Part shown: piece by piece, positions 1,341-43,675 of the stretch | How the letters are laid out: every line of letters starts with the position of its first letter | Numbering within the stretch: the stretch's first letter is position 1 | The notes under the pieces: model-generated | What the model was told of the DNA's origin: nothing | Database searches by the model: none | Seen by the model: the letters and a program-made list of their open reading frames with translations, nothing else | Source: a virus | Lineage: Duplodnaviria; Heunggongvirae; Uroviricota; Caudoviricetes | IMG/VR virus record: IMGVR_UViG_3300036856_000037 | Length of the DNA stretch: 52,665 bases | Direction: 5' to 3' (one strand) | Made by a program: the position numbers and the translations under genes

Positions 1341-1570
1341 CGACTCAAGCATTTCACGTCATCTTGCTGTTGGCTTGCGCTCTCCTGTGTGTGACCATCG
1401 CGCTGGTGGCACTGACCTACCTCATGTGGTTGACCAGACGAGACCTGTATGCCTTGCGGGCATTTGTATTGCGCGACCTGGGTCAGGAGTACCTCAACCG
1501 TGTCACTGCACCCCGCGTGTTGACGCCAGAGGAGCAAGACGCCATCACAGAGATACTAGGGCACACATGA
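1337..1570 (+). CDS. small membrane protein
   Basis: N-terminal hydrophobic helix; ATGA overlap. Confidence 0.6.
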   Translation: MTTQAFHVILLLACALLCVTIALVALTYLMWLTRRDLYALRAFVLRDLGQEYLNRVTAPRVLTPEEQDAITEILGHT

Positions 1571-5159: not shown

Positions 5160-5305
5160 TGAGAAGGAAGCGGTACCGTAAGTGGTTCTGGCGTTGCCCC
5201 AAGTGTCACGGCTGGCGGCATCGGGCCAGCTACCTCGGCTACGACAACACGATGTCGATTACCTGCAACAACTGCAACTTCAACGAGTACCGGAGGCCCG
5301 CGTGA
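5159..5305 (+). CDS. small Zn-ribbon protein (48 aa)
   Basis: CPKC and CNNC; TGATG coupling. Confidence 0.55.
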   Translation: MRRKRYRKWFWRCPKCHGWRHRASYLGYDNTMSITCNNCNFNEYRRPA

Positions 5306-5481
5306 GCAAAGGTTCCAATACCCCCGGCAAGACGCCGTATCAGGCGGCCCGCGCCATCGCGGCAAAGGATCGCCAGGAGCGTCGTGACCAGCGTCCCGTT
5401 GAGGAGCAACTGGGCCTGCTTAGCGAGCGACCAGGCAAGTCCGAACGTGAGCGCAAGCGTCTCGAGAAGTTGCTCGACTAG
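5302..5481 (+). CDS. small basic hypothetical protein
   Basis: GGAGG RBS, GTGA overlap. Confidence 0.55.
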   Translation: MSKGSNTPGKTPYQAARAIAAKDRQERRDQRPVEEQLGLLSERPGKSERERKRLEKLLD

Positions 5482-5556
5482 TGCGCCCGGTGGGATTCGA
5501 ACCCACACCTGGAGGGGGTTTAAGCCCCTTGCCTGCTGCCGTTGGGCTACGAGCGC
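5482..5556 (-). tRNA. tRNA-Leu(TAA), short variable loop
   Basis: cloverleaf; anticodon arm AGGGG-CTTAAAC-CCCCT; TTCGAAT T-loop. Confidence 0.9.
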
Positions 5557-5901
5557 TTATTCCTCAATCCAGTAACCGCCGCGCCGTACCTCAGTCTTGA
5601 GGTTACGTCGGCCGAGTGCCATCTCCCTCTGGTTCAACTCAGCGATGGCTAACTGCTCCTCTCCCAGCTGTCGGCGCAGTCAAACCTTGAAGGTGTTGCT
5701 CTCTGCCATCCGGCGAAACGCCGTCACCTTGTTCTGCAACTGACTGCGCTGCTCTTGGCTCTCGCCTACTGCACCCGAGGCTCGGTGCACGATACGCACG
5801 GCAGTGTCCCGCTTATTACGGTTCTGGCCGCCTTTGCCACTGCCCCGCTTGGTCTGCACATTGCAGTCCTTGAGCGTGACCGACAGAACTTTCTCTTTCA
5901 T
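5557..5901 (-). CDS. GGQ peptide-chain release factor-like (ArfB/RF-1 domain) protein with an in-frame TGA at codon 74
   Basis: GSGKGGQNRNKRDTAVRIVH motif; frame stays open for 40 codons past TGA (5680-5682) to TAA at 5557. Confidence 0.85.
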
Positions 5902-6119
5902 CGCATCCTCTCAATAGATGGCAGGCTGTTGCGGTTGAGTCGCTGGTGTTCCTTGAGGAAGTCCTCAGGGACATCATGGGAGAAGACCTCTGCCACGTTC
6001 CACCACTCACGCGACGGTAAGAGCTCGACACTGACGCCAACCTTGGCGCCCCGCGCTTCAATCCAGCCGGTGGTCTCCGCGTTGTCCCGACGTAATCGGC
6101 ACTGAAAATATTGCTTCAT
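5898..6119 (-). CDS. hypothetical protein (73 aa, two TTA codons)
   Basis: ATG just after tRNA-Leu(CAA); ATGA overlap with RF gene. Confidence 0.7.
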   Translation of the reverse strand: MKQYFQCRLRRDNAETTGWIEARGAKVGVSVELLPSREWWNVAEVFSHDVPEDFLKEHQRLNRNSLPSIERMR

Positions 6120-6120
6120 G

Positions 6121-6201
6121 TGCCCGAGGTGAGATTCGAACTCACACGTCCGAGGACACCGCAGTTTGAATGCGGCGCGTCTTCCGTTCCGCCACACGGG
6201 C
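6121..6201 (-). tRNA. tRNA-Leu(CAA), long variable arm
   Basis: CCGCA-TTCAAAC-TGCGG anticodon arm. Confidence 0.92.
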
Positions 6202-6212
6202 TGGTGCCGTGA

Positions 6213-6279
6213 TGCCCGAGCGGGACTCAAACCCGCAACCGCCCGCGTCCAGGCCGCTCTATCAATTGGCGTACCGGGC
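6213..6279 (-). ncRNA. tRNA-like RNA with a 4-nt loop in place of the anticodon loop
   Basis: 6-bp acceptor, D-like arm, GCCTG-GACG-CGGGC, T arm GCGGG-TTTGAGT-CCCGC, A73. Confidence 0.6.
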
Positions 6280-6288
6280 ATCACTGCG

Positions 6289-6362
6289 TGCTCCCCGTGA
6301 GACTCGAACTCACACTGAATGGCCCCTCAGACCATTGCCTCTGCCGATTGGGCTAGAGGAGC
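6289..6362 (-). tRNA. tRNA-Leu(GAG), short variable loop
   Basis: ATGGT-CTGAGGG-GCCAT anticodon arm. Confidence 0.9.
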
Positions 6363-6363
6363 A

Positions 6364-6426
6364 TGCCCAGCGCGGGACTTCAACCCGCCTCCCACTCCCA
6401 CATAAACGCAACGTCTAATAGTGGGC
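6364..6426 (-). pseudogene. tRNA remnant/minihelix (acceptor + T arm only)
   Basis: GCCCA.../TGGGC-A acceptor; GCGGG-TTGAAGT-CCCGC T arm; no D or anticodon arm. Confidence 0.45.
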
Positions 6427-6446
6427 GGCTCTACACCACCAGGGCG

Positions 6447-6530
6447 TACCCGAGGTGAGATTCGAACTCACACGTCCGAAGACACTGGTCCCTGAAGCCA
6501 GCGCGTCTGCCGAAATTCCGCCACACGGGC
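6447..6530 (-). tRNA. tRNA-Leu(CAG)
   Basis: CTGGC-TTCAGGG-ACCAG; long variable arm. Confidence 0.92.
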
Positions 6531-6545
6531 ATTGTTAAGTTGTTT

Positions 6546-6637
6546 TGGTGGAGGGCGGAGGTCATGCTCCCCAAGCTCCATTACGGCTTCCCGGGTTTCG
6601 AATCCGGTCGCAGGACTATCCCGCTGCTTCACCCTCC
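6546..6637 (-). tRNA. tRNA-Ser(CGA), aberrant T-loop
   Basis: GGAGGGT/GCCCTCC-ACCA; CCGGA-TTCGAAA-CCCGG; long V arm; T-loop AGCATGA. Confidence 0.75.
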
Positions 6638-6638
6638 G

Positions 6639-6725
6639 CGGAGGGCTGAGGAATTGAACCCCAAGCAGATTAGGCTCGTACGCGGTTAGCAACCGGACTC
6701 CAGCGACCAGCCGGAATAGCCCTCC
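6639..6725 (-). tRNA. tRNA-Ser(GCT)
   Basis: GGAGGGC/GCCCTCC-G; loop TTGCTAA; long V arm. Confidence 0.85.
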
Positions 6726-6729
6726 AAGA

Positions 6730-6801
6730 CTAGGAAAGTCGGAGAGACGAACTTGATCGCAGGAGCATCTGCAATCGTAATAGTCGCTGGTCAGCACGCA
6801 T
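6730..6801 (-). CDS. leaderless leader peptide of the Ser/Leu tRNA operon (MRADQRLLRLQMLLRSSSSLRLS)
   Basis: ATG 7 nt after TATAGT; contains all six Leu codons and five Ser codons. Confidence 0.75.
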   Translation of the reverse strand: MRADQRLLRLQMLLRSSSSLRLS

Positions 6802-6808
6802 GACAAGT

Positions 6809-6836
6809 ACTATAGCGCAACCCGTCGCGACTTCAA
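6809..6836 (-). promoter_or_regulatory. SigA-type promoter of the Ser/Leu tRNA operon
   Basis: TTGAAG-N16-TATAGT. Confidence 0.65.
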
Positions 6837-6918
6837 CACCCCAAAGTTACAGTCATCGACATCCGTATTTCGGGCTGTCATGACGGAGTATGGCGGTGCG
6901 TAACAGTACGCTCTGGGC

Positions 6919-7914
6919 ATGGACAACCTCGACCTTGTGTACCGCCGCATCACTGCGCGCCCATCTCGCCGTACACCGCCTTCCTTCCCCTTCCCTGATG
7001 GGACTGCACCGCGTGTCATCTCCACCCGGCTGGACGAAAACTCCGAACTGCCGGAAGCCGATGCGCTGGTGGTGACCTACACCGAGGCAGAGGGTGAGGC
7101 GCTGGCCGACATCCTGACACCCGGGACGCCGTTGCAGAACTGGACGGACTACAAGAACGGCTGGTCCATCATTCACCAGCTCATCGAAGGTGGCCGCGCC
7201 CCCTCTCTCTTCAGTAAGTGCGCCGGCCAGTGGGCACTCATCAGCATCGGTGACACCAAGGTGGTGGTGATGAAGTCCAACATGCACCCGGCGACGGACG
7301 GCCCCAAGCTCCCCATCGCGACAGCGTGGAAGCGCTGGATCAGTCAGGCCAAGCCCAAGCTCGTCATCTCCACCGGTACGGCGGGCGCGGTGCAGACCAC
7401 TACCCAGCTGGGCGACGTCATCGTGTCCAAGAACGTCAGCTGGGATTGTCGCAGGCAGTTTAAGAACGCCAGCTTCGCCGGCCAGAAGTACACCTCAGCA
7501 CTCCAGTTCGACAGCACGGGTATTGAGCGCGCGCTACCGCTGTTGAGTCAGACCACCCAACCGCTCCCTGGGCTCACACGGGCTCCGTCTCTGTGGCTGG
7601 ACAGCTCGGACCAACCGGCGCATGTCATCACCACTGACTTCTTCGCATTCGATGATGAGGAGAACAGCTACGGCCTACGGTCATTCGACCCGCAGGCGCG
7701 CGCGGTGGAGATGGACGACGCCGCGATGGCGATGGTGATGAGTGAGGTACAGATCCCGTGGCTCATTATCCGCAACGCCAGTGACCCGTGCATGCCGAAG
7801 GAAGCCACTGTCGAGCAGGAAGCCAAGGACGCCAGTCACATCTACGAGAAGTGGGGCCAGGTCACGTCCTGGGGTTCGGCACTCACCTGCTGGGCGGCAC
7901 TGGCCAAGAGTTAG
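6919..7914 (+). CDS. nucleoside phosphorylase / MTA-SAH nucleosidase superfamily protein (PNP_UDP_1)
   Basis: LVISTGTAGAV, LGDVIVS, VITTDFF, AVEMDDAAMA, IIRNASD; leaderless (TACGCT-N6-ATG). Confidence 0.85.
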   Translation: MDNLDLVYRRITARPSRRTPPSFPFPDGTAPRVISTRLDENSELPEADALVVTYTEAEGEALADILTPGTPLQNWTDYKNGWSIIHQLIEGGRAPSLFSKCAGQWALISIGDTKVVVMKSNMHPATDGPKLPIATAWKRWISQAKPKLVISTGTAGAVQTTTQLGDVIVSKNVSWDCRRQFKNASFAGQKYTSALQFDSTGIERALPLLSQTTQPLPGLTRAPSLWLDSSDQPAHVITTDFFAFDDEENSYGLRSFDPQARAVEMDDAAMAMVMSEVQIPWLIIRNASDPCMPKEATVEQEAKDASHIYEKWGQVTSWGSALTCWAALAKS

Positions 7915-8339: not shown

Positions 8340-8488
8340 CTGTAGTAGTCCTGTTCGTTAGCCGGGCACCAGCCCTTGAACGGAAGCTGGTCGTTGGCAA
8401 TGACCGCAGCCCAAATGTGGTTGAGGATCAAAGGCCAGCCTCGATAGTCAGGCCAGTTGCTGACGTGCAAAACAGTGGTGGCGCCCAT
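8336..8488 (-). CDS. hypothetical protein (50 aa)
   Basis: fills gap; coupled. Confidence 0.5.
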   Translation of the reverse strand: MGATTVLHVSNWPDYRGWPLILNHIWAAVIANDQLPFKGWCPANEQDYYR

Positions 8489-8489
8489 G

Positions 8490-8681
8490 TCATCTCCCGG
8501 TCGGGACGATCTTGGGCGCAGGGACGAACTGATATAGCGGCAGCGGTCGCTCTGCCCATAGCCGCGTCTGTCGGCCTAGGAATGCATCACGGTCGGCTTC
8601 GGTGCGGAAGCCGCGCCCGCGCCATGCGTAGACGGCGCGCTGTTCTGTGAGGCCGTAGACCTCAACGGTTGTGTCAATCAT
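8490..8681 (-). CDS. hypothetical protein
   Basis: AGGAG RBS. Confidence 0.6.
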   Translation of the reverse strand: MIDTTVEVYGLTEQRAVYAWRGRGFRTEADRDAFLGRQTRLWAERPLPLYQFVPAPKIVPTGR

Positions 8682-8693
8682 GGTGATAACTCC

Positions 8694-8969
8694 TTAGTTC
8701 GCCTCATGGCGGCGGCGTAGCCACTCACGTATCTTGCTCGCCTCCCAGTGAACTCCTGCCAGGTCAGGGTCTTGCTCTGTTGGCTCCAATGGCGGCAGCT
8801 CCTTGCGACACGCTAGGCAGATGGCGTAACGGATGGACCCGTCGTTCTCCACCACGTCATAGACATCCTTGTGCCGCCCTACCAGGCACCGAAGTCGCCA
8901 GGGCAACGTCGGACGCGCGACATGCGTCTGGATGCTCTCCCATGTTGATGTGCTCAAGTGAACTTTCAT
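8694..8969 (-). CDS. hypothetical protein
   Basis: ATGA overlap; C..GRH...CLAC motif. Confidence 0.6.
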   Translation of the reverse strand: MKVHLSTSTWESIQTHVARPTLPWRLRCLVGRHKDVYDVVENDGSIRYAICLACRKELPPLEPTEQDPDLAGVHWEASKIREWLRRRHEAN

Positions 8970-14181: not shown

Positions 14182-14316
14182 AAAAGGTGAACACAGTAGT
14201 AATACCCCTACCGCACGGCGTGTCGGGTCTGCTACAGTTGCGGCATGTTTGCGCGACCCGCCGCCCCACGACCGCCACGATGGCGTCGATATACTCGGGT
14301 TTGACGCGCGCAAAAA

Positions 14317-14355
14317 ATGAGGCGCTCTCCCCTCGGGTATATCTCCGGGGTGTAG
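14317..14355 (+). CDS. candidate leader peptide of the Pro/Trp/Tyr tRNA cluster (MRRSPLGYISGV)
   Basis: M-R start; CCC and TAT codons; ends inside tRNA-Pro; no SD, no Trp codon. Confidence 0.35.
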   Translation: MRRSPLGYISGV

Positions 14356-20383: not shown

Positions 20384-20410
20384 ATGCGTCGTGCGGTCTT
20401 TGTGCTTTGA
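20384..20410 (+). CDS. candidate leader peptide MRRAVFVL (Ala/Phe/Val codons)
   Basis: ATG CGT CGT GCG GTC TTT GTG CTT TGA ahead of Ala, Met, Phe and Val tRNAs; no SD. Confidence 0.5.
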   Translation: MRRAVFVL

Positions 20411-20423
20411 CAACTACAAAAAT

Positions 20424-20504
20424 GGGCTTGGGACAGTTTCGACCTCGTGACGAAATCCGCACGCGGAACCATGAGGGACGCCGGGGCAGCACCGGCCAGG
20501 TCCA
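20424..20504 (+). ncRNA. tmRNA tRNA-like domain without an mRNA-like domain (mini-tmRNA)
   Basis: GGGCTTG/CAGGTCC-A acceptor with G3:U70; GTTTCGAC D-loop mimic; CTCGTG/CATGAG helix; GGAC-GCCGG-loop-CCGGC T arm. Confidence 0.75.
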
Positions 20505-21591: not shown

Positions 21592-21618
21592 ATGCGAAAG
21601 CAGATCACGCCCCGATAA
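21592..21618 (+). CDS. leader peptide MRKQITPR before tRNA-Lys(CTT)
   Basis: AAGGA SD; AAG at codon 3; 5' region homologous to the 43613 leader. Confidence 0.65.
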   Translation: MRKQITPR

Positions 21619-25249: not shown

Positions 25250-25422
25250 AAGGGCTTCTGCAGATGCTGCACCGTGACGTTGCCGGTGTCCTGGTCTTTG
25301 AGGATGACCGAGGTTGTGCGAGGGGCCTTGAAGCTGGTACGGATGAGCGCGCGGGTGGTGGGGAACAGCAGTGGCACTAGGGCGACAAGCAATGCGATGA
25401 TCGCGCCCACGATGTAGTCCAT
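25246..25422 (-). CDS. small membrane-anchored protein (58 aa)
   Basis: N-terminal TM; coupled. Confidence 0.55.
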   Translation of the reverse strand: MDYIVGAIIALLVALVPLLFPTTRALIRTSFKAPRTTSVILKDQDTGNVTVQHLQKPL

Positions 25423-25467
25423 GTGTCAAACTGTAACGCTTCACCCCTGGTGAGGGATACTTACGGC

Positions 25468-27017: not shown

Positions 27018-27018
27018 C

Positions 27019-27069
27019 ATGTTGATTCAGGGCATACGACGAATTAGGTCGCGGCGACAAAGCCGCTGA
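27019..27069 (+). CDS. leader peptide MLIQGIRRIRSRRQSR of the Ile/Arg/Gln tRNA cluster
   Basis: 11 of 15 non-start codons are Ile, Arg or Gln. Confidence 0.65.
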   Translation: MLIQGIRRIRSRRQSR

Positions 27070-27082
27070 CCTGCGTTTTCAT

Positions 27083-34814: not shown

Positions 34815-34891
34815 TTCTATTCCTTTGTTTAGGGCATAGCGCCCATCCGTAGCGGACACGAATAAGGTAGCACCGCGCTAGGCTTTACGGC

Positions 34892-35122
34892 ATGTCACAG
34901 GAGACTTTGGAACGTCCTGATACCAAGGCGGACGACGGCCACACCGGCACCGGGCCAGAGGTATTCCACTACGTCAAAAAGGACAAGATCATCAAGAGCA
35001 CGGTCGACGGCGATCACGTCGTGGCGCTGTGTGGTGAGGTCTTCCCGGTGACCAAGCAGGCCAAGCCAGGCTCCCCGGTGTGCCCAGAGTGCAAGCGTCT
35101 GTACCACATGCTCAAGCCGTGA
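34892..35122 (+). CDS. DUF3039-family protein (actinobacterial)
   Basis: FHYVKKDKI..S.V.G..VVALCGEVFPVTK..KPGSPVCPECK; leaderless (TAGGCT-N7-ATG). Confidence 0.88.
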   Translation: MSQETLERPDTKADDGHTGTGPEVFHYVKKDKIIKSTVDGDHVVALCGEVFPVTKQAKPGSPVCPECKRLYHMLKP

Positions 35123-43612: not shown

Positions 43613-43675
43613 ATGCGACAGCATCGTAAACACGAGCCCGAACGCATGCAGAATAACGTCGGCGCTCGTAGCTGA
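43613..43675 (+). CDS. leader peptide MRQHRKHEPERMQNNVGARS of the Lys/Glu/Asn/Gln/Met tRNA cluster
   Basis: GAGGAG SD; AAA, GAG, GAA, AAT/AAC and CAG codons; pairs with the tRNA-Lys 5' strand. Confidence 0.7.
   Translation: MRQHRKHEPERMQNNVGARS

Follow-up and report, generated by a model that had tools for sequence, protein, structure and literature searches.

Why should a phage place a short open reading frame (ORF) made largely of leucine (Leu) and serine (Ser) codons directly in front of an operon of Ser and Leu transfer RNA (tRNA) genes? The question is raised by the viral record IMGVR_UViG_3300036856_000037, a stretch of 52,665 nucleotides (nt) whose full length is called the window here. 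On its minus strand, a leader ORF of 23 codons (6730..6801) begins with an ATG at 6801 and ends with a TAG stop codon at 6732-6730, leaving a gap of 4 nt to the start of tRNA-Ser(gct) at 6725. The window holds 37 tRNA genes, has about 61% G+C and carries lysis genes of actinophage type; no close DNA relative of it was found among deposited phages. On balance, we favor the view that the leader is a leaderless translated ORF that senses Leu/Ser decoding and tunes its own tRNA operon, probably as a means for the phage to gauge the efficiency with which Leu and Ser codons are read. The comparisons below support a leader whose content is selected to match the downstream tRNAs and whose ORF is translated; that the leader regulates these tRNAs, and with which sign, we infer by analogy with leader peptides.

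The leader peptide reads MRADQRLLRLQMLLRSSSSLRLS. Among the 22 codons after the start, 7 encode Leu, with all six kinds represented, and 5 encode Ser, each with a different codon and with AGC as the sole kind missing. Together they account for 12 of the 22 codons, and 11 of those 12 are distinct. Five further codons encode Arg, CGA being used for four of them. Cognate codons also occur consecutively, in a run of four Ser codons and in two Leu-Leu pairs. The sequence, the frame and the codon counts (all six Leu codons, five Ser codons) that the sequence-only reading had given for this ORF were re-derived and are identical. We also confirmed the scarcity that it had attributed to TTA and CTA, which make up 2.3% and 3.8% of the Leu codons in the window genes. 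Its claim that the codon content is matched to the following Ser/Leu tRNA operon is borne out by this share of Leu and Ser codons and by homologues elsewhere.

Could such a composition arise fortuitously, the leader being a mere pyrimidine-rich spacer with one frame open by accident? It is a short ORF, its pattern was picked after being seen, and an adjacent frame likewise holds 6 Leu/Ser codons (manual reading). However, the locus is unique in the window. Among 105,198 windows of 22 codons in six frames, the leader alone contains at least 11 distinct Leu/Ser codons, and it is the only locus, in any frame of the whole window, to present all six Leu codons within 22 codons. Compared to a background of 0.20, a Leu/Ser share of 12/22 has a binomial P = 3.7e-4 when set against 417 small ATG ORFs of the window, and it ranks top, also in a set of 182 small ORFs. 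With the phage's own codon usage, drawing 7 Leu codons that cover six kinds together with 5 Ser codons that are all different has a probability of about 2e-4. Chance also has to contend with matched mini-ORFs that recur at other tRNA blocks of the window, and with the retention of the leader in other phage genera, with covariation. We therefore give chance almost no credit, and the comparative data already contradict it.

The conservation of the codon inventory in related phages had been set by the sequence-only reading as a test of its interpretation. This test was run and gave the decisive result, as homologues are kept in Bixzunavirus and Myrnavirus, with Ser-only leaders at Ser-only blocks. 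Homologous leaders were located via operon gene content. A BLAST search of the leader region against phages gave matches confined to the tRNA parts, and a degenerate pattern of the leader 3' end, searched in viral contigs, found only cluster C-type phages and one 167-kilobase (kb) contig. In a metagenome scan with the 3'-end pattern, no tRNA stood beside any of the matches listed. The divergent phosphorylase gene (6919-7914) was tried as an anchor for relatives and rejected, as it gave none in IMG/VR; phosphorylase homologues with 54-67% identity lie in phage-like contigs without neighboring called tRNA genes, so that synteny is not conserved.

The cluster C mycobacteriophages share the tRNA block Ser(gct), Ser, Leu(cag), Leu(gag), Leu(caa). 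Directly 5' of this block, and unannotated, we observed a -10 box, 7 nt and an ATG that opens a 13-codon Leu/Ser ORF. The leader reads MFARLSLSSSLRLS in ScottMcG and Cali, with other cluster C records matching the leader region at 91% or more, MFALLSLSSSLRLS in Phabba and Myrna, MFTRLSLSSSLRLS in the uncultivated 167-kb contig, MFAFRLSLSSSLLS in Lukilu and MIAFRLSLSSSLVS in Tonenili. Between the ScottMcG and Lukilu leaders, there are 5 codon differences, all 5 synonymous, and both indels are of 3 nt. One of these differences, TCG to AGC, takes three base changes and retains the amino acid alone. Synonymous changes together with 3-nt indels are the hallmark of selection on a translated frame, not on an RNA sequence.

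The leaders also change with the tRNA set behind them. Two tRNA-Ser genes follow the leader of Sparky (VLIPGRRSSSTSR) and that of the IMG/VR contig L025 (MRFGRRSSSTSR), and a lone tRNA-Ser(cga) follows that of the IMG/VR contig L022 (VTRSSSSSSS, with five different Ser codons). All three are Ser-rich, with 0-1 Leu codon each. Leu codons amount to 23/74 in the leaders of Leu-containing operons compared to 1/32 in those of Ser-only operons (Fisher P = 9e-4, with lineages that are not independent), and the apparent loss of Leu codons where the block consists of Ser tRNAs only is taken here as indicative only. In addition, tRNA-Leu(taa) and a TTA codon in the leader are both present in the window phage and both absent in the cluster C phages.

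These comparisons bear as well on the possibility that what counts is the Arg/Ser/Leu-rich peptide, which might for instance bind RNA or the ribosome, the codon match being secondary. The C-terminal SSSLRLS is common to the window phage and the cluster C phages, and Arg is over-represented in every mini-ORF, two points in favor of such a product. By contrast, peptide compositions are unrelated between blocks and follow the tRNAs, Ser-only leaders lose their Leu residues, length and N-terminus vary freely, and the diversity of synonymous codons is non-random. We consider a functional peptide very unlikely.

How would the leader be translated? The sequence-only reading had placed TTGAAG-N16-TATAGT in front of the ORF, 7 nt before the ATG, and a consensus scan found both hexamers on the minus strand, the -35-like TTGAAG at 6836-6831 and the -10 hexamer TATAGT at 6814-6809, as the only promoter-like site in 5300-7100. 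The -35-like hexamer is not kept in the homologues, most of which have an extended -10 (TGnTAnnnT) instead. A TAnnnT box followed after 6-7 nt by ATG or GTG is present in 10/10 homologous or analogous Ser/Leu and Ser leaders. No Shine-Dalgarno sequence is present 5' of the leader ATG, whose A is preceded by pyrimidines. Judging from the distance that is conserved between the -10 box and the start codon, the most likely start of transcription is the A of the ATG or a base beside it. We applied this arrangement as a blind rule (TAnnnT, 6-7 nt, ATG/GTG, ORF of 5-35 codons). In the whole window it returned 8 ORFs, 3 of which adjoin tRNAs; two of these are cognate leaders, and the third, a poor match inside an Arg/Gln tRNA array, was taken as spurious. 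On the 20-kb ScottMcG locus, the single match was the homologous leader. The stricter TANNNT-N7-ATG occurs only 4 times across the 52.7-kb window, leader included. The remaining three sites, at 1543-1558 (minus), 25420-25435 (minus) and 34879-34894 (plus), may mark leaderless gene starts.

Matched mini-ORFs are also found at other tRNA blocks of the window, the three best being units B, E2 and F on the plus strand. Unit B (14245-14304), encoding MFARPAAPRPPRWRRYTRV, has the arrangement TACAGT, 6 nt, ATG and precedes tRNA-Pro, Trp and Tyr, with 6/18 cognate codons. This Pro/Trp/Tyr leader is kept in ScottMcG (MFEIRPPEPRWRYQPSLGR) and Sparky (MTSARRRPWPWRYTAEG). Unit E2 (27019-27069), encoding MLIQGIRRIRSRRQSR, precedes tRNA-Ile, Arg, Ile, Arg, Gln, Arg and Arg, and 11/15 of its codons are cognate (binomial P = 3e-6). 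Unit F (43613-43675), encoding MRQHRKHEPERMQNNVGARS, has a Shine-Dalgarno site and stands before tRNA-Lys, Glu, Glu, Asn, Gln and Met, with 8/19 cognate codons (P = 6e-4). The mini-ORFs at 21592-21618 and 20384-20410 are weaker units. Permutation of all six peptides against the six tRNA sets gave 1/720 arrangements that matched as well as the real one. The start signals follow the location of the units: those at the head of an operon have a -10 box at 6-7 nt, and internal ones have a Shine-Dalgarno site or start directly after a tRNA 3' end, so that each initiation signal suits the position of its unit. The ORF of unit E2 begins at the base immediately 3' of the end of tRNA-Asp, so tRNA processing could generate a leaderless mRNA.

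The mini-ORFs share a further bias. CGA accounts for 14/25 of the Arg codons in the six mini-ORFs of the window (6730-6801, 14245-14304, 20384-20410, 21592-21618, 27019-27069 and 43613-43675), CGT for 6 more, compared to 10% CGA in the genes of the window (P = 1.5e-8); it is the dominant Arg codon in every one of them. The same CGA bias was observed in the leaders of ScottMcG, Sparky, L025 and L022, and CGA often flanks cognate codons, in the homologues as well.

If the leader is translated and its content matched, what could a ribosome on it do to the tRNAs? The sequence-only reading had proposed a specific stalled-ribosome switch, in which CTCTCC of the leader pairs with GGAGGG at the start of tRNA-Ser(gct) and a hairpin overlaps the Leu run. 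The CTCTCC:GGAGGG pairing is possible, but it does not go beyond chance. The hairpin, located inside the ORF at 6755..6776 of the minus strand (6776-6769/6762-6755; GATTGCAG, a 6-nt loop, CTGCGATC), does fold, at -9.9 kcal/mol; it is neither significant nor conserved, being missing from the shorter homologues. With pairing at chance level, no significant hairpin and no terminator before the tRNA, this specific switch was not upheld, and leader-tRNA pairing as the switch of the window leader was rejected, as it is no better than with shuffled leaders. The duplex between the leader and the whole tRNA gave P = 0.07.

Several results weigh against a regulatory leader, and we set them out together. 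Scanning the minus strand from 6801 to 6638 gave no terminator-like site. The fold of the leader is not significant compared to shuffles (z = -1.27), nor is that of the leader plus tRNA (z = -1.88). Pairing between the leader and the tRNA 5' end reaches -10.3 kcal/mol against a shuffle mean of -11.7, and 76% of the shuffles pair as well or better. The architecture of the leader-tRNA junction varies among lineages and among units, so that no single mechanism fits all units. Both the window and ScottMcG contain tRNA blocks that lack a matched ORF. Many homologues are close relatives, and the independent lineages number about 4-5. Finally, the operon's own tRNAs can read 8 of the 12 Leu/Ser codons of the leader, no more than if those codons had been chosen at random. 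Matching at the level of anticodons was therefore rejected, and the match between leader and tRNAs lies at the amino-acid level.

The junctions themselves take different forms. In the window phage, Sparky and L025, the distance from the stop codon to tRNA +1 is 4-6 nt. In cluster C, the stop codon and the tRNA are separated by a hairpin. The 5' arm of this hairpin, which adjoins the stop codon or overlaps with it, imitates the beginning of the tRNA, and nt 1-11 of tRNA-Ser have their complement in the loop plus 3' arm. Compared to shuffles, the hairpin-tRNA pairing is significant in ScottMcG (-19.1 kcal/mol, P = 0.018) and in Lukilu (-21.8 kcal/mol, P = 0.006). For ScottMcG and Lukilu, respectively, the folding energy is -10.4 and -12.9 kcal/mol for the hairpin alone, and -16.8 and -19.6 kcal/mol for the alternative helix formed with the tRNA. 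The two hairpins differ in sequence and both pairings are retained. Over a stretch of 181 nt (L008:6815-6995 vs L009:701-881), about 9% of the bases are not the same in ScottMcG and Cali; in the approximately 115 nt compared, promoter, leader ORF and hairpin are identical and the differences fall only in the first tRNA-Ser bases. In these cluster C relatives, a ribosome at the stop codon would free the arm that traps the tRNA, and a stall on the Ser/Leu codons would let the harmless hairpin form. This logic recalls the alternative pairings of trp, the tRNA 5' strand standing in for region 4, and we offer it as a model for the cluster C relatives and not for the window phage.

Hairpins also accompany two of the other units. 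Unit B ends in a long hairpin (14281-14343, plus) whose 5' arm covers the Arg-Tyr codons (CGA TAT) and whose 3' arm lies directly 5' of tRNA-Pro. The ScottMcG Pro/Trp/Tyr leader has an 11-base-pair hairpin in the equivalent place with a different sequence (L014:2733-2786), and no U tract follows the hairpin of this leader in the window or in ScottMcG. In unit E2 (27018-27082), a GC-rich hairpin in the 3' part is followed by GCGTTTTC just 5' of tRNA-Ile, and an outer helix joins GGGCAT with ATGCCC, the latter taking in nt 1-4 of tRNA-Ile. Terminators at these other units found no support in a simple scan, in which the E2 hairpin with GCGTTTTC stayed under the threshold.

The cluster C pairing raises the question of whether the leader is read as RNA rather than translated, that is, whether it is a pre-tRNA 5' leader pairing with tRNA or anticodons like a T-box specifier, with an incidental frame. 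Besides the complementarity of the cluster C hairpin to tRNA-Ser nt 1-11, Ser/Leu codons are pyrimidine-rich and hence naturally complementary to the tRNA start GGAGGG. However, an Rfam scan of 5300-7300 with E up to 10, covering the leader and its flanks, returned only tRNA-related and chance matches, the T-box being among the models without a match. The codons that changed between lineages are all synonymous and the indels are in frame, and the TCG to AGC change would destroy an RNA pairing at that site. Moreover, the start codon is fixed at 6-7 nt from the -10 box in every lineage, and the pairing of the window leader is at chance level. An untranslated RNA is thus a poor candidate, to which we assign little probability.

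Our preferred reading, a translated sensor of Leu/Ser decoding, would work as follows. With transcription beginning at or next to the A of the ATG, a 70S ribosome could load without a Shine-Dalgarno site. It would then traverse every kind of Leu codon and five Ser codons, the rare TTA, CTA, TCA, TCT and AGT among them, so that its speed would report Leu/Ser decoding. Ribosome occupancy would tune, in cis, the yield of mature tRNA, most plausibly with stalling leading to more tRNA. Given the 4-6 nt between the stop codon and tRNA +1, the RNase P site and the 5' acceptor strand would be covered by a ribosome that is terminating, and would stay exposed if the ribosome stalled farther upstream.

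Translation might instead merely shield the nascent pre-tRNA transcript, for instance from Rho or RNases that attack its pyrimidine-rich 5' region, in which case good decoding would give more tRNA, or the effect would be constitutive and not homeostatic. The conservation of the ORF under coding constraint is compatible with shielding, as is a window leader without a terminator or a significant switch structure. The last 40 nt of the leader are also C-rich and G-poor (14 C, 6 G; manual count), and C-rich, G-poor stretches are typical of Rho loading sites. On the other hand, shielding leaves unexplained why the amino acids of the leader track the tRNA set across units and phages, and why rare synonymous codons are listed. 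In addition, the Lys/Glu/Asn leader is purine-rich, so that a C-rich loading site is not a general feature. We hold shielding to be an unlikely account.

A wider proposal extends the sensing leader to the whole phage, and we put it forward tentatively, as rather doubtful at present. Actinophages, the well-known Bxz1-like mycobacteriophages among them, might possess a phage-wide circuit in which tRNA supply is read by ribosomes and each tRNA block is headed by a mini-ORF listing codons for precisely the amino acids that the block serves, the ribosome gating the folding of the first pre-tRNA or its processing by RNase P, not termination. Gating would be exerted by the ribosome sitting on the tRNA 5' strand, or by a choice between a decoy hairpin and one that traps the 5' strand. 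Translation that gates tRNA maturation in this way would be a new class of switch. Its tuning could possibly reflect host defences directed at certain tRNAs, for example those of the MenT3/AbiEii family, whose preferred target for inactivation is tRNA-Ser (PMC10435456).

The operon behind the leader lies entirely on the minus strand. Its first gene, tRNA-Ser(gct) (6638..6725), was called by ARAGORN, and is followed by a tRNA-Ser(cga)-like gene (6545..6637) recognized by alignment to tRNA-Ser genes, tRNA-Leu(cag) (6446..6530), tRNA-Leu(gag) (6288..6362) and tRNA-Leu(caa) (6120..6201). Two 73-codon genes (5680..6119) come next within the operon, and the final tRNA of the block is tRNA-Leu(taa) (5481..5556), which reads TTA. 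The second 73-codon gene (5901-5680) encodes an RF-1/GGQ-domain protein of 73 residues (Pfam PF00472, E = 2e-16) with 80-83% identity to RF-1 domain proteins of cluster C mycobacteriophages. RF-1/GGQ-domain proteins of this kind release stalled ribosomes. The ScottMcG RF-1 gene is located elsewhere, beside the DNA polymerase gene, and Phabba has a peptidyl-tRNA hydrolase gene after the homologous Leu tRNAs (L010:1355 onward). This cargo of the operon, RF-1/GGQ here and peptidyl-tRNA hydrolase in Phabba, fits a translation-stress response.

The tRNA-Ser(cga)-like gene at 6545-6637 was not called by ARAGORN even with relaxed settings and was not reported by the Rfam tRNA model. It can be aligned to the tRNA-Ser(cga) that ARAGORN called in L017, as well as to the second of the tRNA-Ser genes annotated in ScottMcG and in Sparky, and its anticodon arm agrees with called tRNA-Ser(cga) genes. 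Its T-loop is odd, reading AGCATGA instead of TTCGAGT; Lukilu has the same loop, and ScottMcG and Sparky have canonical ones. The two spacers between the Leu tRNAs (6363-6445 and 6202-6287, minus) contain tRNA-like elements; these have acceptor-like ends and well-formed T-arms (GCGGG, 7-nt loop, CCCGC), without a recognizable anticodon arm. The sole match in these spacers was a weak one to the tRNA-Sec model (6212-6281, E = 1.8). As further side observations, the ScottMcG tRNA arrays are annotated with a suppressor-type tRNA (anticodon CTA) and a transfer-messenger RNA (tmRNA; L014:4154-4226, 8368-8804), and the window has, according to the first reading of its sequence, a tmRNA-like tRNA domain at 20424-20504.

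The reason why phages carry tRNA genes, and the way these are controlled, are still debated. In the openly searchable full-text literature, we found no description of leader ORFs that control tRNA genes in phages or bacteria. If our reading is correct, phages would measure decoding capacity and adjust tRNA supply per codon family. The element is unannotated in more than 200 sequenced cluster C mycobacteriophages growing on M. smegmatis mc2155, and its presence in these cultured, genetically tractable phages makes the idea directly testable with standard tools.

How does the leader compare to known systems? The classical leader-peptide attenuators are trpL, hisL, leuL, thrL, ilvL and pheL, those of thr and ilv being multivalent. 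Like them, the window leader is a short ORF rich in codons related to its operon, and it is multivalent for Leu and Ser, as ilvL and thrL are for their amino acids. The cluster C hairpin resembles trp in setting a choice of the 2:3 versus 3:4 kind, with the stop codon beside region 2. Unlike the classical attenuators, the window leader has no Rho-independent terminator, a mere 4 nt lie between its stop codon and the first structural gene, it would act on tRNA genes and not on genes of biosynthetic enzymes, and its initiation is predicted to be leaderless. We found no mutually exclusive antiterminator and terminator pairings in the window leader; alternative pairings exist only in cluster C, where the second helix is formed with the tRNA. 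T-boxes control aminoacyl-tRNA synthetase and amino-acid genes, and the leader resembles these riboswitches as a cis-acting element that would read tRNA status via a codon. It differs from them in having no Rfam match, and the evidence favors translation over direct tRNA binding.

The closest parallel that we considered is found in mycobacteria, where leaderless translation is common and its rules have been described (Shell et al. 2015, PMC4633059). Leaderless poly-Cys small ORFs (sORFs) act there as ribosome-stalling attenuators, forming a "Cys ribulon" (Canestrari et al. 2020, bioRxiv 10.1101/834739); stalling of the ribosome disrupts a duplex in which the ribosome-binding site of a protein gene is otherwise concealed, and this occurs without a terminator (10.1101/834739). 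The host genus is the same, as judged from the phage relatives, and the leaders share with the poly-Cys sORFs a short first cistron, an AUG or GUG at the predicted 5' end of the transcript, a run of the sensed codons, ribosome pausing as the proposed signal and the absence of an intrinsic terminator. Unlike in the poly-Cys system, tRNA genes follow the leader, so that there is no ribosome-binding site for a duplex to conceal. Pairing of the leader region with the tRNA 5' strand is no better than with shuffles in the window phage, and is significant in the ScottMcG and Lukilu homologues. The phage-borne leader also differs in addressing two amino acids and in listing nearly all of their synonymous codons, where the sORFs repeat a single one. 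If our reading holds, the notion of a mycobacterial "ribulon" would no longer be confined to protein operons and would take in tRNA operons, and phages as well.

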